A DNA stretch of 50,597 nucleotides from Shigella phage S2_02, in the sequence record OQ223306; one strand, written 5' to 3'. Of this stretch, positions 1,066-50,597 are shown in pieces (position 1 is the first letter of the stretch; every line of letters starts with the position of its first letter). Under the pieces are notes generated by a model. The model did no database searches and was not told where the DNA came from. It saw only the letters and a list, made by a program, of their open reading frames with translations. The translations under genes and the position numbers were made by a program.

Positions 1066-1401
1066 GTGACTATGTTTACTAATATGTTTGATCCGAAGGT
1101 GATGGAAAGACGAAAACTGGAAAGCGAGAAGCAGGAAGAGAACATCAAGAAGATAGCTGATGCCGTGACTGGTAAAAAATTAATCAAAGTAAACCTTAAT
1201 ACCATTGGCCCAGCTTACGACTTAAGAGGTCTTGGCAAGAAAGAGGCGTCAGTGAAGGTTCTTAGACTTATTCACGAAATCAAGAATCAGTACAAGATAG
1301 CCCTCAAGATGAAGAGCCTTAATGTTCCGCATTGCGAGCTTGAGAACATTACTGAGCCGGACTGGTGGGAAATCACCGACGTCGAGTTTACCGTAGAATA
1401 G
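1066..1401 (+). CDS. hypothetical protein (111 aa)
   Basis: ORF track; SD AAGGAGAGG before ATG; stop TAG lies inside conserved box 1397-1417. Confidence 0.6.
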   Translation: MTMFTNMFDPKVMERRKLESEKQEENIKKIADAVTGKKLIKVNLNTIGPAYDLRGLGKKEASVKVLRLIHEIKNQYKIALKMKSLNVPHCELENITEPDWWEITDVEFTVE

Positions 1402-1441
1402 CACTTTTTGTTAAAACCGGATCGGGATAACGCGGTATAGT
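1397..1441 (+). promoter_or_regulatory. Early promoter module: 21-bp box (AATAGCACTTTTTGTTAAAAC) + 18 bp + TATAGT
   Basis: Box 1397-1417, -10-like TATAGT 1436-1441 embedded in hairpin GGGATAAC/GTTATCCC; CATCGA start-like motif follows; gene ATG at 1473. Confidence 0.5.
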
Positions 1442-1669: not shown

Positions 1670-2140
1670 ATGGCGACAATTACCGTATTCCTGGCTAAAG
1701 ATGAGATTGATGGCGAAATGTCATTCTTCGCGTTTGAGCACAAAACCGGATCGCACTGGCACACTTACAGCCATTACACGGTTATCTCAATCGAAGCGTA
1801 CGACGGCGAACTGCTCACTGATAAACTGAGTAATTTCATTGAAGCCGTTAAAGCTAGCGGCGGCTGCGAGTGGAAGGAAGATCACGAAGTTATGCGAATG
1901 TTTGAGATGGTCAATCCGGTTCGCCTTGAGTCGTTCGAGCTTGATGCTAATGTGACTATCAAGGTGAGAAAGTCGGGTGAGTTATTGCCAGGGATGCGTG
2001 TGCTGACTGGTTACTCTGGCCGTAAGGTGTGGCGCACTGTATCCAAGATTCGCCAGCGCTCGGCAACATGCTATAGCGTATTCTTTGATGATGGTTGGAA
2101 TATGATGTCCGGTAGTGAGGTAAAGTATCTCACCAAATAG
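1670..2140 (+). CDS. hypothetical protein (156 aa)
   Basis: ORF track; GAGG SD; stop TAG inside box 2136-2156. Confidence 0.6.
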   Translation: MATITVFLAKDEIDGEMSFFAFEHKTGSHWHTYSHYTVISIEAYDGELLTDKLSNFIEAVKASGGCEWKEDHEVMRMFEMVNPVRLESFELDANVTIKVRKSGELLPGMRVLTGYSGRKVWRTVSKIRQRSATCYSVFFDDGWNMMSGSEVKYLTK

Positions 2141-2180
2141 CACGAATTGCTAAAACCGGATCGGGGTATCTTGCTATAGT
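2136..2180 (+). promoter_or_regulatory. Early promoter module: box AATAGCACGAATTGCTAAAAC + 18 bp + TATAGT
   Basis: Box 2136-2156; TATAGT 2175-2180 in hairpin GGGGTA/TACCCC; CATCGA follows; gene at 2219. Confidence 0.5.
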
Positions 2181-2789: not shown

Positions 2790-2959
2790 TGCGCATTCTA
2801 ATTTGCATGATGGCGGCAGTCGCCATAACTATCCTGGTAGTGTCCGGCTGCGGAGAGGTCAAAGAGAGATGCCATGAAACCGGAAACCAGGTTACTACTT
2901 TCGTGATGGTTGGAAACGTATTGCTACCAATCACATCAAATGAAATCACTTGCGAATAA
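2786..2959 (+). CDS. putative small lipoprotein (57 aa)
   Basis: ATGA overlap with previous micro-ORF; N-terminal signal-like segment with lipobox-like VVSGC; stop TAA falls inside box variant 2955-2975. Confidence 0.4.
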   Translation: MMRILICMMAAVAITILVVSGCGEVKERCHETGNQVTTFVMVGNVLLPITSNEITCE

Positions 2960-2999
2960 CACTTTTTGTTAAAACTCAATTCCGGGGTTGCGATATAGT
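2955..2999 (+). promoter_or_regulatory. Early promoter module (variant box AATAACACTTTTTGTTAAAAC + 18 bp + TATAGT) with no sizeable ORF downstream
   Basis: Box shows symmetric half-site change TAACA/TGTTA; TATAGT 2994-2999; only a 24-codon ORF (3069-3143) before next module. Confidence 0.45.
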
Positions 3000-3139: not shown

Positions 3140-3184
3140 CTAAGCACGAATTGTTAAAAGGGGATTTGTCCTGACTGGTATAAT
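3140..3184 (+). promoter_or_regulatory. Early promoter module: box CTAAGCACGAATTGTTAAAAG + 18 bp + TATAAT
   Basis: TATAAT 3179-3184 in hairpin GGGGATT/AATCCCC; box contains stop TAA of 24-codon ORF; gene at 3215. Confidence 0.5.
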
Positions 3185-3762: not shown

Positions 3763-3807
3763 AATAGCACGAATTGCTAAACCTTCCGCAAGGCCATTTG
3801 ATATAGT
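3763..3807 (+). promoter_or_regulatory. Early promoter module: box AATAGCACGAATTGCTAAACC + 18 bp + TATAGT
   Basis: TATAGT 3802-3807 in hairpin AAGGCCA/TGGCCTT; predicted start about 3814 supports ATG 3848 as gene start. Confidence 0.5.
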
Positions 3808-5214: not shown

Positions 5215-5433
5215 ATGGCTACTATCATGACAGCAGAAGATGCAGCACGCGAAGCAGTGGAAGGAATGCGCCCAAATAGCTCCAGAATCGCCCACTACTA
5301 CAAATTTGAGGTGTCGGCAGTGCAATTGGTCCATGAAATTTTAAGGCTCCCACAAGTCGATTCAGCGCGCGTGGTGACGTGCTTAAAAAATTATTTTTGC
5401 ATCACTATTAAAACGAATAGCACGAATTGCTAA
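5215..5433 (+). CDS. hypothetical protein (72 aa)
   Basis: ORF track; weak SD; C-terminus NSTNC and stop are encoded by box 5416-5436; an alternative 36-codon hydrophobic ORF 5120-5230 has a better SD. Confidence 0.4.
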   Translation: MATIMTAEDAAREAVEGMRPNSSRIAHYYKFEVSAVQLVHEILRLPQVDSARVVTCLKNYFCITIKTNSTNC

Positions 5434-5460
5434 AACTTGCTCAAGGGCATTTGTTAGAAT
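5416..5460 (+). promoter_or_regulatory. Early promoter module: box AATAGCACGAATTGCTAAAAC + 18 bp + TGtTAGAAT
   Basis: -10-like TAGAAT 5455-5460 in hairpin AAGGGCAT/ATGCCCTT; gene at 5501. Confidence 0.5.
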
Positions 5461-6142: not shown

Positions 6143-6715
6143 ATGAAAACAGCTATCGTTTTAAACGGCGCGCCTGGAGCGGGAAAAGACACTATCGGAT
6201 GCATCCTGGCTGACACTTACGATCACGTAGCCTTGCGCAGCTTCAAAGCGCCAATGTTTGAGATTGCCCGGGCAATCCTGGGTGAAGCTAACTACGAGTA
6301 TTTCATGTTCTTGTATGAGGACCGTCGATATAAAGAAGAGCCAGCATCCATCCTGAACGGTAAAAGCCCACGCCAGTTTATGATCTGGATTAGCGAAGAA
6401 GTCATCAAGCCGCAGTTCGGAAATCGCTTCTTCGGTATGCGAGCGGAAAGCAAGGTGAAAGAGTCGCACTCCCTTTCGGTATTTACTGACGGTGGATTCA
6501 AAGATGAGATCTTGCAAATGATTGAAGGCGATATCCAAGTCAAGCTATGCCGCATACATCGCAACGGCTGCAACTTCGATAACGACAGTCGAGATTATAT
6601 CTACCTGGATAATATGATCGGTGTCAACGGTTATCAGGAATGTGACTTCTTCTCTGTCGAAGGTCATCCAGAAATTACCGCTCAGCACATAGCCGCCACG
6701 TTCATCAATAAATAG
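6143..6715 (+). CDS. P-loop nucleotide/nucleoside kinase-like protein (190 aa)
   Basis: ORF track; Walker A GAPGAGKDT at N-terminus; stop TAG inside box 6711-6731. Confidence 0.65.
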   Translation: MKTAIVLNGAPGAGKDTIGCILADTYDHVALRSFKAPMFEIARAILGEANYEYFMFLYEDRRYKEEPASILNGKSPRQFMIWISEEVIKPQFGNRFFGMRAESKVKESHSLSVFTDGGFKDEILQMIEGDIQVKLCRIHRNGCNFDNDSRDYIYLDNMIGVNGYQECDFFSVEGHPEITAQHIAATFINK

Positions 6716-6755
6716 CACGAATTGCTAAAACGTCGATGGGGTGATTTGATATAGT
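6711..6755 (+). promoter_or_regulatory. Early promoter module: box AATAGCACGAATTGCTAAAAC + 18 bp + TATAGT
   Basis: TATAGT 6750-6755; flanking 9-bp stem CGATGGGGT/ACCTCATCG has one G-T (G.U) pair; gene at 6788. Confidence 0.5.
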
Positions 6756-8492: not shown

Positions 8493-8501
8493 TAAATACT
8501 A

Positions 8502-8524
8502 ACCCGCTTCGGCGGGTTTTTTTA
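8502..8524 (+). terminator. Rho-independent terminator closing the rightward early region
   Basis: CCCGC-TTCG-GCGGG hairpin followed by T7. Confidence 0.7.
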
Positions 8525-8535
8525 TGCCTGCAATA

Positions 8536-8561
8536 TGGTAAAATAACACTAAATGTTAAAC
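8536..8561 (+). promoter_or_regulatory. Putative late promoter (extended -10 TGgTAAAAT) overlapped by box copy AATAACACTAAATGTTAAAC
   Basis: TGGTAAAAT 8536-8544; box 8542-8561 spans predicted start and abuts TerS SD. Confidence 0.4.
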
Positions 8562-14995: not shown

Positions 14996-15763
14996 ATGGC
15001 TTACGAAAATTTAATGTTGCGCCCAGCGTGTCCGGGAAATCTTTCTGATACTTCAACCTACAATATTGATGGCGCTTGCGTGGCTCAAGGTGACATTGAG
15101 TTCGGCGCGGCGGTTCAGGTTGTCGGCATCGTTGATGGTGTAAAAGTCGTCAAAGTACTTTCTGATGGCGGGACTCCTTACGGTATCGCTTTCCGTTCTC
15201 AATATGAACACCTGAGCGGTAAAATTCTCGACGGCGAAGTTTGCAACGTCGTTTCTCACGGTCGCATGTGGGCGCTTACTTCTCTTGATGAGGCTCCCGG
15301 CTTGTTCTCAAAGTTGCAGTTTGGATCTGGTGGAGTTGTTACTGGTGGGTCTGGTTCCGCAGGATGGACCTTTGCTGGCGGCTTTGTTAAGCATGAAGAT
15401 GGCTACATTATTGAGGTTCAGGTGAAACAAAATGCTTTCATTGTTCCACCGCCGCCGCCCCCTGTCGTTCTTGTTGAATCCGCTACAATCACCACTGACA
15501 AGGAAAGCCCTCAGCCAAACAACGTTACGATCCAGTGTGTAGCTAATGTTATTCCAGCTAATGCAACTGATAAGACTGGCAAGTGGTCAATAGACGCTAC
15601 CAATATCGCTACTATCGATCCTGACTCAGGTCTTGTAACTCCTGCTGGTGGAGAATCGGTCGGTGATTTCAATATCACATGGACGGCTAACGATGCCAGC
15701 AAGACGACGGCAACCATTGCTTATCGCGTAGAAGCAGTGCCAGAGCCAGAGGTTGATGCATAA
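14996..15763 (+). CDS. capsid-associated protein, paralog B, with poly-Pro linker and Ig-like C-terminal domain (255 aa)
   Basis: ORF track; N-terminus paralogous to 14458..14934; PPPPPP linker; C-terminal beta-rich segment resembling Big_2-type Ig domain. Confidence 0.5.
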   Translation: MAYENLMLRPACPGNLSDTSTYNIDGACVAQGDIEFGAAVQVVGIVDGVKVVKVLSDGGTPYGIAFRSQYEHLSGKILDGEVCNVVSHGRMWALTSLDEAPGLFSKLQFGSGGVVTGGSGSAGWTFAGGFVKHEDGYIIEVQVKQNAFIVPPPPPPVVLVESATITTDKESPQPNNVTIQCVANVIPANATDKTGKWSIDATNIATIDPDSGLVTPAGGESVGDFNITWTANDASKTTATIAYRVEAVPEPEVDA

Positions 15764-15775
15764 CATAAAAACACT

Positions 15776-15803
15776 TTGACGCTTTAACAAAAAGTGCTAT
15801 TAT
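15776..15803 (+). promoter_or_regulatory. Putative sigma70-type promoter for major capsid gene (TTGACG-16-TATTAT) with box copy in the spacer
   Basis: TTGACG 15776-15781, TATTAT 15798-15803; reverse-orientation box 15781-15801 fills the spacer. Confidence 0.45.
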
Positions 15804-15806
15804 TGA

Positions 15807-15836
15807 AGCCGTGAACATAATCACGGCTTTTTTATT
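15807..15836 (+). terminator. Hairpin + T-run upstream of major capsid gene
   Basis: GCCGTGA-acataa-TCACGGC followed by T6. Confidence 0.5.
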
Positions 15837-19472: not shown

Positions 19473-19484
19473 ATCATATCCATA

Positions 19485-19510
19485 GGGGGCTTGCGCCCCC
19501 TTGTTCATTT
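19485..19510 (+). terminator. Hairpin after major tail gene (weak U tract)
   Basis: GGGGGC-ttgc-GCCCCC followed by TTGTTCATTT. Confidence 0.45.
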
Positions 19511-19565
19511 CTGTAAAATCATCCTATCAACTTTATTCAATTAACTTTTAACAAAAAGTGCTATC
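19491..19565 (+). promoter_or_regulatory. Putative promoter for tail chaperone (TTGCGC-17-TAAAAT) with box copy in 5' UTR
   Basis: -35 TTGCGC 19491-19496 inside hairpin, -10 TAAAAT 19514-19519, reverse-orientation box 19545-19565 just before SD. Confidence 0.4.
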
Positions 19566-25770: not shown

Positions 25771-25775
25771 AATTA

Positions 25776-25799
25776 ACCCGCCTTGCGCGGGTTTTTTTT
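25776..25799 (+). terminator. Rho-independent terminator (hairpin CCCGCCTTGCGCGGG + T8), copy 2
   Basis: Hairpin sequence identical to 23598-23612. Confidence 0.65.
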
Positions 25800-25839
25800 C
25801 GCCTGTATAATGGGTTCACCGATAAATAGCACAAAAAGG
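25783..25839 (+). promoter_or_regulatory. Putative promoter for J (TTGCGC-17-TATAAT) with box-like AATAGCACAAAAAGG in 5' UTR
   Basis: -35 inside terminator hairpin, TATAAT 25806-25811, box-like sequence 25825-25839 adjoining SD. Confidence 0.4.
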
Positions 25840-25847
25840 TAAACATC

Positions 25848-30516: not shown

Positions 30517-30545
30517 TCGTGTGTCCTCGTCGTTAGTGTGATTGC

Positions 30546-30574
30546 ATTGTATGTCGCATTTACTTTTATTGCAA
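30546..30574 (-). promoter_or_regulatory. Putative sigma70 promoter for cor operon (TTGCAA-17-TACAAT on minus strand)
   Basis: Minus-strand -35 at 30569-30574 and -10 at 30546-30551, 17-bp spacer; SD GAGGA before cor ATG. Confidence 0.5.
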
Positions 30575-30595
30575 TAGCACGATTACAATTTTTTA

Positions 30596-30950
30596 GTGTA
30601 ACAGGTGTCTATTTTTGTAACCGGAACGGGTGTTACAAAATCCACCACATCCGATCGCAGAGGGATATGATAAAAACTCTATATAATATATATAGATAGA
30701 TAATATTTAATTTTAGCTTTATATATATAATTATTGCTGTGTAACAGTTGTCTATCGTGTAACAGGTGATTTTATTGATTCGTCAAATTTCTATCATATA
30801 TGTTCAAAATTTAATCAATATTGATTCTATTCATGGATATCTGTGTATTTCTAAGAAAATGCTGTTACAAGTATTACACAATAGACACCACATAAAAACA
30901 GCTCTAAGCTATTGATTACGTTGACACTGGTTGTAACTTGAGCGATATAG
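30596..30950. repeat. Array of GTGTAACAG / GTGTCTAT motifs (direct and inverted) with AT-rich tracts in divergent control region
   Basis: Copies read at about 30596-30613, 30616-30637 (palindrome TGTAACC...GTGTTACA), 30736-30768, 30861-30889 (inverted), 30930-30950. Confidence 0.6.
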
Positions 30951-32107: not shown

Positions 32108-32115
32108 ACGGCACA

Positions 32116-32150
32116 AATAGCTAAACAAATAATTAATGAGGTGTTATAAT
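32116..32150 (+). promoter_or_regulatory. Degenerate box + hairpin carrying TATAAT upstream of erf
   Basis: AATAGCTAAAC at 32116-32126; hairpin ATGAGGTG-ttataatg-CACCTCAT with TATAAT 32145-32150. Confidence 0.4.
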
Positions 32151-35121: not shown

Positions 35122-35174
35122 AATAGCACGAATTGCTAAGCACAGATTTTATCATTGTGCCACCTGCCTTGCAA
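35122..35174 (-). promoter_or_regulatory. Putative sigma70 promoter for tail-fibre gene (TTGCAA-17-TAAAAT, minus strand) with box copy at the start site
   Basis: Minus-strand -35 at 35169-35174, -10 at 35146-35151; box AATAGCACGAATTGCTAAG 35122-35140 between start site and SD AAGGAG. Confidence 0.45.
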
Positions 35175-35182
35175 TGGGCAAT

Positions 35183-35204
35183 AAAAAACCGCCCGAAGGC
35201 GGTT
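35183..35204 (-). terminator. Rho-independent terminator after primase gene (minus strand)
   Basis: AACCGCC-cgaa-GGCGGTT preceded on plus strand by A6 (U-run on minus transcript). Confidence 0.6.
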
Positions 35205-36150: not shown

Positions 36151-36217
36151 AAAATAAAAAACGCGTAGAAGGATGTTAACCCGCTACGCGTCGTTTGTTT
36201 TAACTAAAAATGCTATT
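36151..36217 (-). promoter_or_regulatory. Minus-strand module: box + 18 bp + TAACAT overlapping hairpin/T-run terminator, upstream of primase
   Basis: Box (revcomp AATAGCATTTTTAGTTAAAAC) 36197-36217 contains stop of upstream gene; -10-like at 36173-36178; hairpin ACGCGTAG/CTACGCGT 36161-36191 then U-run. Confidence 0.45.
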
Positions 36218-36652: not shown

Positions 36653-36663
36653 CTTAATTCTCC

Positions 36664-36732
36664 TGTAGCACTTTTTGCTAAAAACGTTTACTGTATGCCG
36701 TGTATTATATCGTAAACGATACAACGATTCAA
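36664..36732. promoter_or_regulatory. Overlapping divergent promoters: box + 18 bp + TATTAT (plus, helicase) and TTGAAT-17-TATAAT (minus, HTH gene)
   Basis: Box 36664-36684; plus -10 at 36703-36708; minus -35 at 36727-36732 and -10 at 36704-36709; box lies in 5' UTR of the minus transcript. Confidence 0.45.
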
Positions 36733-36746
36733 AGGATTAAATAGCC

Positions 36747-38765
36747 GTGACAATTAACATCAAAAAGCAAATCGCATTACTTGGCGAGGACTATATAAAA
36801 CGCACTCAAGAACGATTCACTGTCGGTGAGGTCGTTCCTTATCCGTATCAGGTTGTTGCTTATGCCGAGATCGCAAAACGCCTTTCAAATTACGAGCATC
36901 CATTCTTTGTTAAAGCGTCAGTATCTGCTGGTAAAACAATCATATTCGCTATGGTGGCAAAGCAGTGTCAAAAAATGGGATTGAAAATGCTTGTGCTTGC
37001 GAGGCAGGGTGAGATTGTCGATCAGGATAGTGAGGAGATCGATAACTTCGGGGTAACGAACTCCATCTTCTCAGCGTCGCTTGGAATCAAGTCCTGCTAC
37101 TTCCCGATCGTGGTTGGCTCTGAGGGTACTGTTGCAAATGGCCTAAACAATGAGTTGGCTGATTTTGTCCCGCATGTAATTGGGATCGACGAATGTCACC
37201 AGGTGGATTGGGAAGACCTTGCTCAAGCCATTGAAGGAAAGGAAACGATGGAGCAGATGAAGGGGGAGAAAGGGAAAGTTATTATGGACGGGGAGATTCC
37301 TCTGATTGGTAATGATGGGAAACCTTTACTTGGAACTAAGCGAAGCCAGTACACTATCGTAATCATGGAGATGATGCGTCGCTGTAAAGAGATTCACGGG
37401 CATGACCTCAGAATATTTGGCATGACAGGATCTGAATTTAGGGGCGTTGTTCCGATTCTGGTGGAGAATACAAAGGCGTTAGGATTCTGGCGTGAGCGCG
37501 TAACTGATATCGATACAAACTATCTGATTGAGTTCGGCTCTGTTGTGCCGACGATATTCGGTTCAACTGACGGAGTACACTACGATCTGGATAAGTTCAA
37601 GGCGTCAAGCGAGGACGGCGTACAGGACTTTACAGAGAAAGATATGAAGGCTATGGAAGATGAGATCCTTCATGATAAATCCCTGACTCAGCGAATCATG
37701 CAAATGGTCGCCAAAAAGGCAGAAGAACGCAATGCGGTCCTGATTACATGTGCCGGGGTGCGTCACTGTAAAGAGGCGGCGGCGGCACTTCCACCTGGAA
37801 GTACCTATGCAATTATCACTGGCGAAACAGACACCAAAACGCGCAAGAAGATTCTTGATGATGTGAGGGCCGGGAAAATTAAATACACCTTTCAGGTAAT
37901 GGCGCTCACTACTGGCGTTAACGTTCCAAATTGGGATTTCAGTGTCATACTCCGCAAGATAGGGTCGCTCACACTGTTGATTCAACTTTTGGGTAGGGGT
38001 ATGCGTCTGCTTAAACCCTGGCAGGTTGCTGAGGGAATGGTTAAGCAGGACCATCTGGTATGGGATTTCGCAGGTACGATGGATGAATTGGGTCAGCTTT
38101 ATTTCGATCCGATACTTGAGCAGGCACAATTCCAAAAGCGTTTTGAAAACGGCAAAGATCCGAAAACATGTCCGAAATGCGGTTGCGTAAATAGCTTCTA
38201 TGCTCGACGATGCGTTAACGTTATCGACGGCGAGCGCTGCGATCACTTCTGGACTTCTCAGATTTGCGAGGACCAGGTTGATGAACGTACCGGGAAAATT
38301 CTTGTTAAAGGGTGTGGTGCTGAGAATGACGTTGTGGCACGAGTCTGTCGTTGCTGTGATGTTTCTCTCGTCGATCCGAACCTGAAGTTGTCCGGTAAGG
38401 CGTACACTAAGAATGACTGGTACGAGGTCAAGAATTTTGAGGTTACGCTAACCAAAAACCAAAAGGGCGTGATATACAAATATACGCTGATTAATGATGA
38501 CGGCGATGAGTTCAAGGCGTATGAAAAATTCTTCCCTGAGTCCGACTCTAAGATTTGCGGTACGCTATGGAAAACGAAAGGTGTATTACCTCATGTGTCA
38601 GATCCTAAAATGCGTCGCTACTTTATTGGAATGAAGAACGCTATCAAGATCGTGCAATACTCGCATCATATAGCGCATCCGGTGCGCGTAACTCATCGCC
38701 GCAACCAGAAGAAAGAAGATATTATCTCACGCAAAGACTTCGGTATGGAGGATATCCCGGAATGA
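36747..38765 (+). CDS. superfamily-2 DNA helicase (DEAH-type) with C-terminal zinc-finger region (672 aa)
   Basis: ORF track (GTG start); Walker A SAGKT and motif II DECH; C-terminal Cys clusters. Confidence 0.8.
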   Translation: MTINIKKQIALLGEDYIKRTQERFTVGEVVPYPYQVVAYAEIAKRLSNYEHPFFVKASVSAGKTIIFAMVAKQCQKMGLKMLVLARQGEIVDQDSEEIDNFGVTNSIFSASLGIKSCYFPIVVGSEGTVANGLNNELADFVPHVIGIDECHQVDWEDLAQAIEGKETMEQMKGEKGKVIMDGEIPLIGNDGKPLLGTKRSQYTIVIMEMMRRCKEIHGHDLRIFGMTGSEFRGVVPILVENTKALGFWRERVTDIDTNYLIEFGSVVPTIFGSTDGVHYDLDKFKASSEDGVQDFTEKDMKAMEDEILHDKSLTQRIMQMVAKKAEERNAVLITCAGVRHCKEAAAALPPGSTYAIITGETDTKTRKKILDDVRAGKIKYTFQVMALTTGVNVPNWDFSVILRKIGSLTLLIQLLGRGMRLLKPWQVAEGMVKQDHLVWDFAGTMDELGQLYFDPILEQAQFQKRFENGKDPKTCPKCGCVNSFYARRCVNVIDGERCDHFWTSQICEDQVDERTGKILVKGCGAENDVVARVCRCCDVSLVDPNLKLSGKAYTKNDWYEVKNFEVTLTKNQKGVIYKYTLINDDGDEFKAYEKFFPESDSKICGTLWKTKGVLPHVSDPKMRRYFIGMKNAIKIVQYSHHIAHPVRVTHRRNQKKEDIISRKDFGMEDIPE

Positions 38766-39242: not shown

Positions 39243-39662
39243 ATGGCTGTACTAGATAAGGGTGATTATTTAGAATATTATGAACGAGATCCCAGCGATA
39301 CTCGAAAGGAGGTTGCTCATCAGATTGATAGCTTCCAGTGGCTAAAGCACAATCATCCGGAATTGCTTGCTTGGCATAGCGTTAATGAAAATAAGAAGAC
39401 AAAAGTTACCGCGATGATTGACCAGCAGTCAGGATTACTTAAGGGCGTATCAGACTTCGTTATCCTGATTGGTGTAAACTCACGTTACCCGTTCGCAGCT
39501 ATCGAACTCAAACGGGTTAATAAGTCCGGCAAAGGAAAAGCGTCACCAGTCAGCGATAAGCAAATTGAGTTTCTCAAAAAGGTTCGTGAACGCGGTGGAT
39601 TCTCTGCCGTTGCATACGGATTTGAGCAATTCAAGCTGGCAATATGCGATTTAACTAAATAG
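39243..39662 (+). CDS. putative VRR-NUC / PD-(D/E)XK nuclease (139 aa)
   Basis: ORF-track frame 39213..39662; ATG 39243 follows upstream stop; GVSDFVIL ... AIELKRVN resembles D...E.K nuclease motif. Confidence 0.5.
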   Translation: MAVLDKGDYLEYYERDPSDTRKEVAHQIDSFQWLKHNHPELLAWHSVNENKKTKVTAMIDQQSGLLKGVSDFVILIGVNSRYPFAAIELKRVNKSGKGKASPVSDKQIEFLKKVRERGGFSAVAYGFEQFKLAICDLTK

Positions 39663-39702
39663 CACTTTTTGCCAAACACGCCGGAATGGAATCTGGCATT
39701 AT
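39658..39702 (+). promoter_or_regulatory. Early-type promoter module upstream of dam (box + 18 bp + CATTAT)
   Basis: Box AATAGCACTTTTTGCCAAACA 39658-39678 includes upstream stop TAG; weak -10-like at 39697-39702. Confidence 0.4.
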
Positions 39703-40691: not shown

Positions 40692-40725
40692 TTGCTAAAA
40701 CTACCCGGCGAAAGTCGGGTATAGT
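40681..40725 (+). promoter_or_regulatory. Early-type promoter module: box CGCAGCACTAATTGCTAAAAC + 18 bp + TATAGT
   Basis: TATAGT 40720-40725 after hairpin ACCCG/CGGGT; CATCGA follows; box contains upstream stop TAA. Confidence 0.5.
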
Positions 40726-40967: not shown

Positions 40968-41217
40968 ACGAGAGGTTTGGGAGCACGCGAAGGAATGCGG
41001 AATCTCAGAAGATATAGCACTAATAGCGAAATATTTCGATATAAAGGATGTTAGCATTATCTCAAATGGCAAGATTTCATTTATGGAAGATATGCCGAGA
41101 AAAATGCATAGAGTTCCAGCAACTCCATCACTTGAGTTTTATCGTGAAGAAGGAAAGAGAATTGAGCGAGAACGAAAAAACGCAAAGAACAACAAGACTT
41201 CCAGGCTTAAATATTAA
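40945..41217 (+). CDS. hypothetical protein (90 aa), overlaps next ORF
   Basis: ORF track; SD GGAGA; overlaps 41048..41449 by 170 nt in another frame. Confidence 0.35.
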   Translation: MMIKKQGKREVWEHAKECGISEDIALIAKYFDIKDVSIISNGKISFMEDMPRKMHRVPATPSLEFYREEGKRIERERKNAKNNKTSRLKY

Positions 41218-41527: not shown

Positions 41528-42679
41528 ATGTCACAAGCTAAAATCACCACCGAGCAACTTATTGAAGAGCGCATGAGCGGCCTAACACTTCGCGAAATCG
41601 CGGAAAAATACGGTATGCACATTCGCACTGTTGAAGCGCGACATGCCAAGCTGGCAAAAGAAGGTCATTTTCACGGTAACGAGCATGTTGCTAAAAACGT
41701 GCCCGAGGGATTCATGGTAAAAGGCACGTCGACGATGATTCGCGGCGATGGGACCGAGGTAGTGCGCTGGGTAAAAACCGATCAGGACCGTGAGAAGATT
41801 GCGGCAATGATGGAAGCAGCGCGTATTGCATTCTGTGAAGACCTGCCGAGAGCGAAGCCAACCGAGCTACTAACCTCGCAAGGGCTTACGACAGCGATGG
41901 GTAAGCTGGCACTCTATCCGGTATTCGATCTTCATATTGGCGCGCTTGCTCACAAGCATGAATGCGGAGAGAACTACTCTACCGACGTAGCTGAAAAAGT
42001 GCTTGGCGACTTCTTCAATTACGCGATCGATATTGCCCCGAACGCAGAGAAAGCTGTTCTGTTAATCGGCGGTGACTTCCTTCACTCGGACGGTCTTGAT
42101 GCTGTTACCCCGGCAAGCGGTCACGTTCTGGATCAGGATTCACGATATGCAAAATTGGTGCATGTGGCTATTCGATCGGTGCGTCGCGCTATCGACAAAA
42201 TGCTACTGAAGCACAAAGAAGTCGAAGTCCAGGTTATCGAAGGGAACCACGACCAGGCCGGGATGATTTGGCTACGCGCTGCAATGGCTGCATACTATGA
42301 AGACGAGCCGCGAGTATTCGTTGACGTCAGTCCTATGATTCTGCATAAGACTCGCTGGGGAAATACCTTACTGGGATACACTCACGGTCACACGATGAAA
42401 AAGGCAGACACGCGACTTGCAGCGATGGCGGCAGACTTCCGCGCAGACTTTGGAGAAAGCAAATACGTGTATACTCACAGTGGGCACTGGCATCATCAGA
42501 CAATCACTGAACACTCACTCGGTATTGATGAAGTTCACGGTCAGCTTGGGGCGAAAGACGCATATGCGGCGCGCGGCGGGTGGCGCTCATATCGCCAGGC
42601 GGCGGTAATCATTTACGATAAGCAGTTTGGTGAAATCGGTCGATTCATCTATCGTCCAGAAATGACAGGATCGCACTAA
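41528..42679 (+). CDS. calcineurin-like metallophosphoesterase with N-terminal HTH-like domain (383 aa)
   Basis: ORF track; motifs DLHIG, GGDFLHSDG, GNHD, GHTM, HSGHWHH; N-terminal LTLREIAEKYGMHIRTV HTH-like segment. Confidence 0.65.
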   Translation: MSQAKITTEQLIEERMSGLTLREIAEKYGMHIRTVEARHAKLAKEGHFHGNEHVAKNVPEGFMVKGTSTMIRGDGTEVVRWVKTDQDREKIAAMMEAARIAFCEDLPRAKPTELLTSQGLTTAMGKLALYPVFDLHIGALAHKHECGENYSTDVAEKVLGDFFNYAIDIAPNAEKAVLLIGGDFLHSDGLDAVTPASGHVLDQDSRYAKLVHVAIRSVRRAIDKMLLKHKEVEVQVIEGNHDQAGMIWLRAAMAAYYEDEPRVFVDVSPMILHKTRWGNTLLGYTHGHTMKKADTRLAAMAADFRADFGESKYVYTHSGHWHHQTITEHSLGIDEVHGQLGAKDAYAARGGWRSYRQAAVIIYDKQFGEIGRFIYRPEMTGSH

Positions 42680-42713
42680 TTACTAAAAATACCCGAAGGG
42701 ATTCGGGTATAGT
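42669..42713 (+). promoter_or_regulatory. Early-type promoter module: degenerate box + 18 bp + TATAGT
   Basis: Box GATCGCACTAATTACTAAAAA contains upstream stop; TATAGT 42708-42713 after hairpin ACCCGAA/TTCGGGT. Confidence 0.45.
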
Positions 42714-46273: not shown

Positions 46274-46318
46274 ATGATACACCGCCAATGGTACACGCGT
46301 TTTGCAAAAAGTGCTATT
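46274..46318 (-). promoter_or_regulatory. Leftward early promoter module (box + 18 bp + TATCAT on minus strand)
   Basis: Box (revcomp AATAGCACTTTTTGCAAAACG) 46298-46318; minus-strand -10 at 46274-46279. Confidence 0.45.
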
Positions 46319-46773: not shown

Positions 46774-46818
46774 ACTTTATCAAATGACCTTACGGCAACA
46801 TTAACAAATCGTGCTATT
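46774..46818 (-). promoter_or_regulatory. Leftward early promoter module (box + 18 bp + TAAAGT)
   Basis: Box 46798-46818; -10 inside hairpin AAGGTCA/TGACCTT (46768-46792), which differs from the 3791-3817 hairpin by compensatory changes. Confidence 0.5.
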
Positions 46819-47287: not shown

Positions 47288-47333
47288 AATATACCTTACT
47301 CCCTGCTGATTGTCTTTAGCTATTCGTGCTATC
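47288..47333 (-). promoter_or_regulatory. Leftward early promoter module (box + 19 bp + TATATT)
   Basis: Box 47313-47333; -10 within hairpin GGGAGTAA/TTACTCCC (47282-47303). Confidence 0.45.
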
Positions 47334-48404: not shown

Positions 48405-48449
48405 ACTATACCAGCCATCCCGGATGCGCGTTTAGCAAAAAGTGCTATT
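48405..48449 (-). promoter_or_regulatory. Leftward early promoter module (box + 18 bp + TATAGT)
   Basis: Box 48429-48449; minus-strand TATAGT at 48405-48410; CATCC start-like motif. Confidence 0.5.
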
Positions 48450-49016: not shown

Positions 49017-49062
49017 CAATATACCCCGATTACCTTCGGGGCGTTTAGCAATTCGTGCTGTT
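49017..49062 (-). promoter_or_regulatory. Leftward box copy with hairpin; -10 weak
   Basis: Box (revcomp AACAGCACGAATTGCTAAACG) 49042-49062 with hairpin CCCCGA/TCGGGG; no good -10 at the expected spacing. Confidence 0.35.
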
Positions 49063-49434: not shown

Positions 49435-49479
49435 ATTATGCCAAATCACACCGATCGAGTTTTAACAAAAAGTGCTATT
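49435..49479 (-). promoter_or_regulatory. Leftward early promoter module (box + 18 bp + CATAAT)
   Basis: Box 49459-49479 contains stop of HNH gene; minus-strand -10 at 49435-49440. Confidence 0.45.
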
Positions 49480-50283: not shown

Positions 50284-50329
50284 ATCATACCCTGCCAACA
50301 TAGCTAAGTCGTTAGCAAAAAATGCTATT
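50284..50329 (-). promoter_or_regulatory. Leftward early promoter module (box + 19 bp + TATGAT), first of leftward early region
   Basis: Box (revcomp AATAGCATTTTTTGCTAACGA) 50309-50329; minus-strand -10 at 50284-50289; CATCA start-like motif. Confidence 0.45.
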
Positions 50330-50470: not shown

Positions 50471-50597
50471 GGGGGGGGAATTGGTGTTACCCAGTTCACC
50501 TGGTAGTCATCTCCATTTTTAGCAAAAAGTGCTATCCATTACGATTACGCTTGATTGTGTGTTAATCCATGTATATGATTTGCCTAAATCGCAATCG
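50471..50597. repeat. Terminal direct repeat copy 2 (identical to 1-127)
   Basis: Exact match to window start; repeat may continue beyond window end. Confidence 0.9.

Follow-up and report, generated by a model that had tools for sequence, protein, structure and literature searches.

A marbox-like repeat at predicted early and late promoters of a T1-like phage

The 50,597-nucleotide record OQ223306 (Shigella phage S2_02), analysed at its full length and called the window below, is the genome of a T1-like coliphage (Tunavirus). A box of 18–20 bp with the pattern ATAGCAC-N3-TTGYTAAA is repeated across this genome, and we report that the box matches the Escherichia coli marbox consensus. The repeat itself is already known, with its function left open; the match is new. 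Judged by its sequence, the chance that the box is a marbox-type site, meaning an asymmetric 20-bp target for one MarA/SoxS/Rob-like AraC/XylS monomer, is in our estimate about even. We give the same weight to a regulatory scheme in which such a monomer, probably the host's, would activate the early promoters and block the late ones.

Results

The repeat and the marbox consensus

As the probe for scanning the window we took the E. coli marbox consensus in its published form, AYNGCACNNWNNRYYAAA, rather than a pattern derived from the phage. Across the whole window there were 16 exact matches, where 0.02 were expected, and 27 matches with at most one mismatch, against an expectation of 2.1; no shuffled sequence reached either count. 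The phage box satisfies the marbox consensus in the form AYnGCACnnWnnRYYAAAY (PMC3709825), in the form GCAHWWWWTGYYAAA (PMC6900184) and in the refined form (PMC2453137), the last including the boxes of the GAATT class, and it belongs to the 20-bp asymmetric degenerate consensus AYnGCACnnWnnRYYAAAYn, with GCAC as RE1 and YYAAA as RE2. Conservation of the box is asymmetric: G4 is conserved at 98%, whereas C accounts for 67% and T for 32% at its dyad partner, and the positions C7/T11 and A1/A17 are non-palindromic. The box is the same in T1, in Klebsiella phage KP36 (55% capsid identity) and in Pantoea phage PSKM (46%), and besides T1 and KP36 the element is found in 80 metagenomic relatives. The ends of the window share 127 nt, so that the following box is the same site as that at 48–65:

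50518–50535, minus strand: orphan box from the consensus scan, without a −10 at class II distance

The element is identical to the 21-nt direct repeats (aaATAGCACnnnTTGnTAAAA) described by German and Kropinski in 2024 for phage TLS, and also for T1, Rtp and Rogue1 (PMC11447400), and the window belongs with the Drexlerviridae that carry about 20 intergenic copies of this repeat per genome. TLS repeat DR7 (minus strand, beside terminator T35) corresponds to the capsid site described below, and DR8 (after T49) to the J site. In that paper the repeats are co-directional with transcription and lie about 76 nt before start codons, and their function is left open between stoperator, enhancer and UP-like element (PMC11447400); it gives neither the marbox identity nor the 18-bp link to a −10 nor the operator positions. 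We found no literature linking T1-like phages to MarA, SoxS, Rob or the marbox.

Predicted early promoters of class II type

At 20 of the 27 consensus sites a TAnnnT hexamer lies 17–19 bp past the 20-mer (at 18 bp in 18 cases, at 17 in one and at 19 in one), and the gap is 19 bp at two additional variant boxes, 50311 and 40050. All class II boxes point the same way as the genes downstream of them. Class II mar/sox/rob promoters share this arrangement: a forward box covers the −35 position, about 18–19 bp from the −10, with its centre near −41.5. The transcription starts in the window are predicted ones. At the roughly 20 early and replication promoters the box points toward the gene; its GCAC occupies about −47 to −44 and its centre lies near −41. 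The predicted promoters are:

1398–1441, plus strand: early class II-type promoter (box, 18 bp, TATAGT)
2137–2180, plus strand: early class II-type promoter (box, 18 bp, TGcTATAGT)
2956–2999, plus strand: early class II-type promoter (ATAACAC variant)
3141–3184, plus strand: early class II-type promoter (TAAGCAC variant, TGgTATAAT)
3764–3807, plus strand: early class II-type promoter
5417–5460, plus strand: early class II-type promoter (TAGAAT)
6712–6755, plus strand: early class II-type promoter
32108–32150, plus strand: class II-type promoter, recombinase gene downstream (17-bp gap, TGtTATAAT)
36173–36216, minus strand: class II-type promoter, primase gene downstream (TAACAT within a terminator-like hairpin)
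36665–36708, plus strand: helicase class II-type promoter; box in the pir 5′UTR, −10 overlapping the pir −10 (36709–36704, minus strand)
39659–39702, plus strand: dam class II-type promoter (CATTAT); Pdam is Pir-responsive (PMC6737242)
40682–40725, plus strand: class II-type promoter
41014–41057, plus strand: class II-type promoter candidate (TAGCAT)
42670–42713, plus strand: class II-type promoter
46274–46317, minus strand: early class II-type promoter
46774–46817, minus strand: early class II-type promoter
47288–47332, minus strand: early class II-type promoter (19-bp gap)
48405–48448, minus strand: early class II-type promoter
49018–49061, minus strand: early class II-type promoter
49435–49478, minus strand: early class II-type promoter
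50284–50328, minus strand: early class II-type promoter (TATGAT at 19 bp)

The E. coli micF promoter, with ACAGCACTGAATGTCAAAAC, 18 bp and then TAGAAT, has the same gap. Its box is centred at −41.5, and MarA, SoxS and Rob activate from this forward box (PMC9638938); in the Rob–micF complex Rob touches G-47 and A-45 (PMC9178005). Like mar/sox/rob class II promoters of the micF type, the phage promoters combine an extended or otherwise good −10 with no usable −35; TTGCTA was considered as a −35 and rejected, as it lies 22 nt from the −10. Unlike the E. coli regulon, they occur at about 20 per 50 kb in the genome of a virulent phage, their boxes are closer to consensus than the host's own mar box (1 mismatch), and their −10s are bracketed by a variable GC-rich hairpin.

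Boxes on or beside late promoter cores

A sequence-only reading of this DNA had placed the same box at five σ70-like late promoters, away from −41: over the extended −10 and start of terS, within the TTGACG-16-TATTAT spacer of the major capsid gene, in the 5′UTRs of the tail chaperone and J, and at the start site of the minus-strand tail-fibre promoter. All five boxes were recovered at these places, on or beside the promoter core, and are among the 27 matches, 15783(−) and 19547(−) as exact matches and 8543(+), 25826(+) and 35123(+) with one mismatch. The description of the promoters needs some revision: the cores are conserved, but those of J, the chaperone gene and terS are not classical TTGACA promoters, and the TTGCGC −35-like element of the J and chaperone promoters sits in the preceding terminator. 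Promoter-like matches as a class numbered 27 in this region where 26.2 were expected, which is not above chance, and the predicted promoters therefore rest on conservation in relatives. The late features are:

8536–8544, plus strand: terS late promoter, extended −10 TGgTAAAAT, past the terminator at 8501–8518; aligns with TGgTATAAT/TGcTATAAT in all relatives
8543–8560, plus strand: terS box ATAACACTAAATGTTAAA, forward, about −8 to +10, over the end of the −10 and the start site; 1 mismatch
15776–15803, plus strand: major capsid promoter TTGACG-16-(TGc)TATTAT with an A-tract upstream; −35/−10 kept family-wide
15783–15800, minus strand: capsid spacer box ATAGCACTTTTTGTTAAA, backward relative to the capsid gene, about −27 to −10; exact consensus
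15805–15830, plus strand: terminator hairpin right after the capsid −10, predicted start in its 5′ arm
19491–19519, plus strand: tail-chaperone late promoter P_R, TTGCGC (terminator loop)-17-TAAAAT; 17-nt spacing and TAnAAT in all genera
19521–19564, minus strand: predicted antisense class II promoter P_L, box, 18-bp gap and TGaTAGGAT (−10 at 19526–19521), start at about 19514
25783–25811, plus strand: J (tail tip) late promoter TTGCGC (terminator loop)-17-TATAAT; spacing kept across genera
25826–25843, plus strand: J box ATAGCACAAAAAGGTAAA, forward, about +9 to +26, including the J ribosome-binding site; 1 mismatch
35146–35174, minus strand: tail-fibre promoter TTGCAA-17-(TGa)TAAAAT past the terminator at 35204–35187; hexamers kept and spacer varying in 13 relatives
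35123–35140, plus strand: fibre box ATAGCACGAATTGCTAAG, backward relative to the fibre gene, about −1 to +17; 1 mismatch

The capsid promoter (TTGACG at 15776–81, TATTAT at 15798–15803) was picked up independently by a consensus scanner (10/12, TG present) and is annotated as a promoter in T1 (AY216660). The TGc and TAT of its extended −10 come from the ATAGCAC end of the box. Throughout the family, in relatives with as little as 55% capsid identity, the box stays between −35 and −10, and it switches among relatives between the TTTTT class (T-class) and the GAATT class. An antisense promoter at this site was rejected, since the minus-strand hexamer at 18 bp is almost never T-final.

A backward box between or overlapping −35 and −10 is the repressive marbox placement of the rob type. 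The rob promoter of E. coli is repressed by MarA, SoxS and Rob (PMC12282887). When rob (CAGCAAAAAATGCTATTAT) and the phage capsid promoter (TAACAAAAAGTGCTATTAT) are compared, the junction of box and −10 is nearly identical, a backward RE1 being fused to the −10 in both (rob ...CAAAAAATGCTATTAT, capsid ...CAAAAAGTGCTATTAT), whereas RE2 has the full consensus at the phage site and is poor in rob. Schneiders and Levy are said to have ascribed rob repression, in 2006, to a backward box between −35 and −10. On the marbox reading of the phage box, micF activation and rob repression thus give a direct precedent for one factor acting in both ways.

The chaperone box (19547–19564) lies downstream of the P_R core and 22 nt before the ATG region. 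It is in the 5′UTR as had been claimed, but is no mere UTR operator, since it is predicted to drive the antisense promoter P_L, which converges on and overlaps P_R. TAnnnT lies exactly 18 bp from the box in 24 of 24 relatives, with TG in 21 of the 24, and the spacer is variable. On this evidence we place the chaperone box in a conserved antisense class II promoter, as its predicted activator site; this promoter overlaps the late one. Relative to the late promoters none of the five boxes is at −41. A TAnnnT hexamer 17–19 bp past the 20-mer is present at 19547(−) and absent at the four other sites.

At terS (TG at 8536–37, hexamer at 8539–8544) the box begins within the −10; it is confined to Tunavirus (at least 84% capsid identity), where most relatives read ATAGCAC. 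The J box starts 14 nt past TATAAT (25806–11), and ACAGCACAAAAGGTTAAAA is found at equal distance from TATAAT in relatives to about 60% capsid identity; the box is kept in most genera and absent in Webervirus. In 13 Tunavirus relatives the fibre box does not vary while spacer and linker drift; it is absent in Tlsvirus-like relatives. No forward −10 was found at 18 bp past the terS, J or fibre boxes. Judged by the conservation of the capsid box across the family, of the J box in most genera and of the fibre box beside a drifting spacer, the late placements are under selection.

Candidate readers of the box

A Pfam scan of about 58 early or function-unassigned proteins found no AraC/HTH_18 domain; Serglycin matches in the scan stem from inserted linkers, and no MotA or AsiA homolog was found in it. 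With PSKM gp47 and E. coli MarA as queries, tblastn found no homolog of either in the window, T1 or KP36, and the relatives of gp47 in the phage database are only from Dibbivirus and unrelated phages. After these Pfam, tblastn and phage-database searches, an AraC/MarA protein encoded by T1-like genomes was rejected.

Pantoea phage PSKM carries the same boxes together with its own 136-aa AraC-family protein, gp47; among solved structures its best relatives are MarA and RamA. The residues with which helix 3 of MarA reads DNA are not kept in gp47, so it need not be the protein that reads the box. The Dibbivirus phages (PSKM, AAM37, DIBBI) share with T1-like phages the box with a −10 at 18 bp and the head and replication genes; they encode the MarA-like gp47, whereas T1-like phages have no detectable AraC-type protein. 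No box was seen at the PSKM capsid or terS promoters.

Discussion

If the box is a marbox, the protein that reads it is most likely a host one, namely Rob, MarA or SoxS (in Klebsiella, RamA). We infer that protein bound at the box would recruit RNA polymerase to the early promoters, which have no −35 of their own. The same protein would hinder the capsid promoter by occupying the spacer between −35 and −10, as the resemblance to the rob junction suggests, and the terS, J and fibre promoters by occupying the start region. The chaperone promoter P_R would be hindered by polymerase drawn to the box-driven P_L, whose −10 abuts the late −10, and the helicase promoter, predicted to be box-driven as well, overlaps the pir promoter in the same P_L/P_R manner. 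The earlier proposal of one factor that activates early units and represses structural promoters gains from the dual placement of the box and the conservation of the late sites; the repression itself we infer. Late genes would come on once the regulator leaves the boxes. Here we are guessing, and the release we imagine is more speculative still: replicating DNA, with about 25 near-consensus boxes per genome, might outnumber a fixed pool of host protein. That a host stress regulator times the whole T1-like programme, with replication titrating the pool so that early transcription goes down and late transcription on, the programme coupled in the gut to signals of bile, antibiotic or oxidative stress, and the phage DNA acting as a regulator sink that disables the mar/sox/rob defence response of the host, strikes us as unlikely.

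Several points weigh against the host-reader model. Unstressed cells contain little MarA or SoxS, and most of their Rob is kept in an inactive state; T1 nonetheless multiplies well in ordinary cultures, and we know of no report of rob, marA or soxS mutants that resist T1. The boxes at terS, chaperone and fibre are lineage-specific, hence not essential to the programme of the family. Furthermore, two promoters that carry a box, Pdam and Ppir, change in activity in response to the T1 regulators Pir and Orf65 (PMC6737242). A phage regulator (Pir/Orf23, Orf65 or another small HTH protein) might then be what reads the box, perhaps as a dimer on TAGCA-N5-TGCTA, activating from about −42 as lambda cI does at PRM and repressing on overlap, with the likeness to the marbox due to mimicry or chance. 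In reporter assays Pir activates Pdam and represses its own promoter (PMC6737242), and the box lies where it is predicted to activate at Pdam and to block at Ppir; Pir, whose HTH is Cro/YdaS-like, has a conserved counterpart in KP36 (54% identity), and the 5+5 dyad is present in GCTA variants. We nevertheless consider this alternative somewhat unlikely. Phol and PrecE, two of the four Pir-responsive promoters, are box-free within the cloned 150 bp; conservation of the box is asymmetric and its orientation fixed; all 17 specified positions of the marbox, as well as the micF spacing, would have to agree by chance; and nearly every early unit, in both arms, would depend on a protein that must be made first.

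The late boxes could also be by-products or building blocks rather than operators, namely −10 modules, antisense promoters or remnants of inserted early modules without effect on late timing. GTGCTAT, the reverse complement of ATAGCAC, is the start of an extended −10 (TGcTAT), which makes a backward box a handy −10 module; at the capsid gene its junction with TAT gives TGcTATTAT, the chaperone box belongs to an antisense promoter, and the terS, chaperone and fibre boxes are restricted to lineages. Such an origin is distinctly unlikely in our view, as the whole capsid box including RE2 is kept family-wide and swaps classes, while spacers normally drift (compare the fibre promoter), and as five late promoters have each gained a box within about −30 to +46, none of them in an activating position for the late gene. 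It is very improbable that RNA polymerase itself reads the box, be it as an UP-like element or enhancer for the α C-terminal domains, as an unusual −35 or as a stoperator-like roadblock. TTGCTA, the A/T-rich stretches and a position at about −50 to −31 would suit these roles, but TTGYTA at 22 nt from the −10 is beyond the reach of σ70 region 4. UP elements are A/T-rich tracts from −59 to −38 that are read by the α C-terminal domains and have no invariant G/C core, unlike the box with its conserved GCAC (G4 98%) and G13. The stoperators of L5 lie within transcription units in one orientation, where they are bound by the phage repressor and halt elongation; most boxes here are instead upstream of promoters, fixed 18 bp from the −10, and the late ones occur in both orientations. 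To our knowledge the box has no role for a prophage repressor. The UP-like, enhancer and stoperator suggestions are those of the TLS paper (PMC11447400). Finally, the sequence-only reading had offered action in RNA as its alternative. On this view the box would be a leader element that binds a protein or small RNA and controls translation or stability of late messages. The J box includes the ribosome-binding site, and the chaperone and fibre boxes adjoin theirs. This possibility has become barely credible: RNA would contain the box itself at terS and J but its complement at capsid, chaperone and fibre, the early boxes are upstream of the start, the leaders are unstructured (z −0.2 to +1.4), and no Rfam family matched.

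Two phage systems invite comparison with the proposed marbox scheme. In T4 middle promoters (MotA/AsiA) a box likewise replaces the −35, a good −10 is kept and an activator redirects the host polymerase. The MotA box is centred at −30 and read by phage proteins, whereas the box described here lies at about −41 and resembles a host site. The cI protein of lambda, bound at OR, activates PRM from −42 and represses PR, the two promoters overlapping and facing opposite ways, a layout like that of the helicase/pir and P_L/P_R pairs; cI, however, is a phage-encoded dimer that acts on symmetric operators in a lysogenic switch, in contrast to an asymmetric site present in about 25 copies in a virulent phage.

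T1 is a classic phage in whose genome annotators found almost no standard promoters. Read as a marbox, the repeat yields about 20 predicted early promoters that lend themselves to testing, a concrete candidate for the factor and a simple account of early versus late control. Terminator-embedded promoters, and activator-driven antisense promoters that may shut an overlapping promoter, are compact designs of general interest. If host regulators read the boxes, a whole family of common enterobacterial phages, many Klebsiella therapy candidates among them, would depend on drivers of multidrug resistance. The success of the phage could then vary with antibiotic, bile or oxidative stress, and phage DNA could soak up the mar/sox/rob regulators.

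A marbox-like element at a fixed distance from early −10 hexamers

The element ATAGCAC-N3-TTG(C/T)TAAA (the box) is common to the terS, major capsid, tail chaperone, J and tail-fibre promoter sites cited in the sequence-only reading, all five of which are real at their window coordinates, and to about 20 other sites in the window. The published consensus of the E. coli marbox, the MarA/SoxS/Rob site, is AYnGCACnnWnnRYYAAAY (PMC3709825); a ChIP-derived form, GCAHWWWWTGYYAAA (PMC6900184), and a refined form (PMC2453137) have also been published. The window contains 16 exact matches to this consensus vs 0.02 expected, and 27 with at most one mismatch vs 2.1 expected, the five late sites being among the latter.

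In the early and replication regions, all copies are oriented toward the downstream gene. At a constant distance beyond each copy comes a hexamer resembling TATAGT/TATAAT, in many cases TG-extended; a conserved ATCGAnAACGA comes next, together with a ribosome-binding site. This −10 hexamer lies exactly 18 bp past the 20-mer at 18 sites, and at 17 or 19 bp at two more. The early promoters share the 18-bp gap with the E. coli micF promoter (K-12 genome), which reads ACAGCACTGAATGTCAAAAC + 18 bp + TAGAAT. The micF box is centred at −41.5 (PMC9638938), matching the '−41' position named in the sequence-only reading. In the Rob–micF cryo-EM structure, Rob touches G-47 and A-45 within GCAC and sits over the −35 position (PMC9178005). 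Conservation across the phage box is asymmetric (G4 98%, vs 67% C and 32% T at its would-be dyad partner), with symmetry broken at C7/T11 and A1/A17 and orientation relative to the −10 fixed. The asymmetry and the fixed orientation are both more in keeping with a monomer carrying two HTHs than with a symmetric dimer.

At most early promoters (including 2164–2186, 1425–1449 and 40705–40719) a GC-rich inverted repeat brackets or directly precedes the −10. Its arms differ in sequence among promoters with complementarity kept, and the start-region motif ATCGAnAACGA follows it. Transcripts from the early promoter would lack the 5′ arm, which leaves read-through RNA or DNA as the only places for the hairpin to form.

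The repeat has already been published, in the 2024 re-annotation of TLS, where 18 intergenic 'direct repeats' (consensus aaATAGCACnnnTTGnTAAAA) are listed and similar ones are noted in T1, Rtp and Rogue1. No single role is assigned to them there, stoperators, enhancer sites and UP-like elements all being offered as possibilities; the paper mentions no match to the MarA/SoxS/Rob site (PMC11447400). The capsid and J sites correspond to its DR7 (minus strand, adjoining a terminator) and DR8. The marbox identity, the 18-bp class II rule (forward box, 18 bp, −10) and the operator-type late placement were not found in the searchable literature.

Genome and gene order

The window is about 95% identical to T1, Lg3 and SH6 and represents a T1-like coliphage (genus Tunavirus, family Drexlerviridae). 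Its nt 1–127 recur as nt 50471–50597, which marks the sequence as that of a circularly permuted genome, closed by a 127-nt assembly overlap (unique length 50,470 nt). Gene order is as in T1:

0.4–8.5 kb: rightward early genes
8.6–29.3 kb: head and tail genes
31–43 kb: recombination and replication genes
between replication and leftward early genes: lysis genes
44–50.5 kb: leftward early genes

The box at 48–65 (= 50518–50535, inside the overlap) has no −10 at class II distance. In a long AT-rich non-coding stretch (30540–30900), GTGTAACAGGTG-like repeats recur and position 30574 has a half box, ATAGCACGATTACAA; the stretch may be an origin, or a site set for the T1 regulators Pir or Orf65. For one small early protein (1473–1667) the Pfam hit is Gp54 (4.7e-31), described as 'phage antiviral trigger protein'; several others hit the recent families DUF7274, DUF7180, DUF7244 and DUF3850.

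Operator-type positions at late promoters

Positions at the late sites were counted from predicted start sites:

8536–8544, just past the terminator 8501–8518: terS promoter TGgTAAAAT; box 8543–8560, about −8 to +10
15776–15781 and 15798–15803: capsid promoter TTGACG, 16 nt, TATTAT; box 15783–15800, minus strand, about −27 to −10
19491–19496 and 19514–19519: chaperone promoter TTGCGC, 17 nt, TAAAAT; box 19547–19564, in the leader, just 5′ of the ribosome-binding site
25783–25788 (in a terminator) and 25806–25811: J promoter TTGCGC, 17 nt, TATAAT; box 25826–25843, about +9 to +26
35174–35146, minus strand: fibre promoter TTGCAA-17-TAAAAT; box 35123–35140, about −1 to +17

The capsid spacer is filled by the box, whose ATAGCAC end gives the TG and TAT of the extended −10. 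The capsid and fibre promoters were each recovered independently by the promoter scanner. Because promoter-like matches in this region were at chance as a class (27 vs 26.2 expected, consensus scanner) and starts are predicted only, 80 relatives (99–55% capsid identity) and 17 fibre relatives were fetched for comparison. The capsid −35, −10 and whole backward box are kept family-wide, and in some lineages the spacer box is of a GAATT class (TTTAGCAATTCGTGCTAT) replacing the TTTTT class; this switching favours selection acting on the box itself over mere inheritance of the spacer. In most genera the distance between the J box and TATAAT is preserved, and there the box reads ACAGCACAAAAGGTTAAAA, a full consensus match; among the relatives compared, Webervirus lacks it. 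A classical footprint is seen at the fibre promoter, where 13 relatives share the same −35, −10 and box but differ in the spacer and the 5-nt linker. Among the relatives compared, the terS box occurs only in Tunavirus, whereas the terS −10 is family-wide.

Two late promoters (19484–19519 and 25775–25811) are built into preceding terminators, whose loop and 3′ arm give the −35-like TTGCGC exactly 17 nt 5′ of TAAAAT/TATAAT, a spacing kept across genera. Another terminator hairpin (15805–15830) lies directly 3′ of the capsid promoter; the predicted start is in its 5′ arm, so only read-through RNA would terminate.

Proposed mode of action

Sequence, geometry and conservation are the basis on which we infer binding, activation, repression and timing. 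A protein bound at −8 to +10, −1 to +17 or +9 to +26 would lie within the polymerase footprint and should exclude polymerase. The E. coli rob promoter is repressed by MarA and SoxS (PMC12282887). It reads ...CAGCAAAAAATGCTATTAT and the phage capsid promoter ...TAACAAAAAGTGCTATTAT; in both, RE1 (the GCAC half) is fused to the −10. The rob marbox reportedly lies backward between the hexamers, with polymerase trapped there by MarA (Schneiders & Levy 2006).

The chaperone box does lie in the 5′ UTR, but its reading as a leader operator gives way to another. On the minus strand TGnTAnnnT occurs exactly 18 bp on in 24/24 distinct relatives, and this constancy despite free spacer drift points to a conserved antisense class II promoter, P_L (−10 19526–19521, predicted start ~19514). 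Its −10 is one base from the late chaperone −10 on the opposite strand, and polymerase recruited to P_L would cover the late promoter. The helicase/pir pair (36653–36746) repeats this layout, also in T1 and KP36: the box-driven helicase −10 (36703–08, plus strand) overlaps the pir −10 (36709–04) of the minus-strand promoter TTGAAT-17-TATAAT, with the box inside the leader of pir, adjoining the ribosome-binding site. This arrangement fits the published negative control of Ppir.

An antisense promoter at the capsid site was rejected, as the last T of the corresponding minus-strand hexamer is missing in nearly all relatives. At 15760–15766, about −50 to −44 of the capsid promoter, there is a half box resembling RE1, together with an A-tract; it reads ATAACAT here and ATAACAC in most relatives. 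It is conserved family-wide and occupies the RE1 position of class II promoters. Read on the minus strand it yields TGtTAT, also conserved and at class II distance from the backward box, but not ending in T.

Candidate readers of the box

It is unlikely that the box acts in RNA. It is on the transcribed strand at terS and J, but its complement is transcribed at the capsid, chaperone and fibre sites, and at early promoters it lies upstream of the predicted start; late leaders have no structure beyond shuffled controls, and Rfam gave no match. The main rival to a MarA-like reader is Pir (T1 Orf23), which in reporter assays activated Phol and Pdam and repressed Ppir and PrecE, Orf65 being a second T1 regulator (PMC6737242). 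In the window, the box of Pdam does lie where activation would be expected and that of Ppir where blocking would be, but Phol (TTGTAT-17-TAAAAT) and PrecE (TTGACT-17-TATAAT) have none within the cloned 150 bp, so these data neither identify Pir as the reader nor count it out.

When ~58 proteins, early or of unknown function, were scanned against Pfam, none had an AraC/HTH_18 domain, and tblastn found no E. coli MarA homolog in the window, T1 or KP36, a Klebsiella phage in which the box is unchanged. Counting against reading by a host factor, Rob activity is low in unstressed cells, and we know of no phage-resistance phenotype reported for rob, marA or soxS mutants. Pantoea phage PSKM (Dibbivirus), a T1-related myovirus whose head and replication genes are T1-like, carries these boxes too, again with a −10 18 bp away. 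Its gp47 is a 136-aa member of the AraC family (HTH_18, 3.7e-13), and MarA and RamA are its best relatives among solved structures. The gp47 gene (PSKM 36886–37296) is in an operon behind a box-type promoter (~35447), so gp47 may activate itself, as marA does. In a phage-database search gp47 homologs were confined to Dibbivirus, one member of which is reported on Xanthomonas, and tblastn found none in T1-like genomes. This lends indirect support to a MarA-like reader but does not settle the matter, as the helix-3 contact residues of MarA are missing from gp47. With a MarA-like reader, enterobacterial T1-like phages would borrow the host's protein, whereas Dibbivirus would bring one along; more speculatively, late promoters might be released once replicating DNA titrates a fixed host pool.
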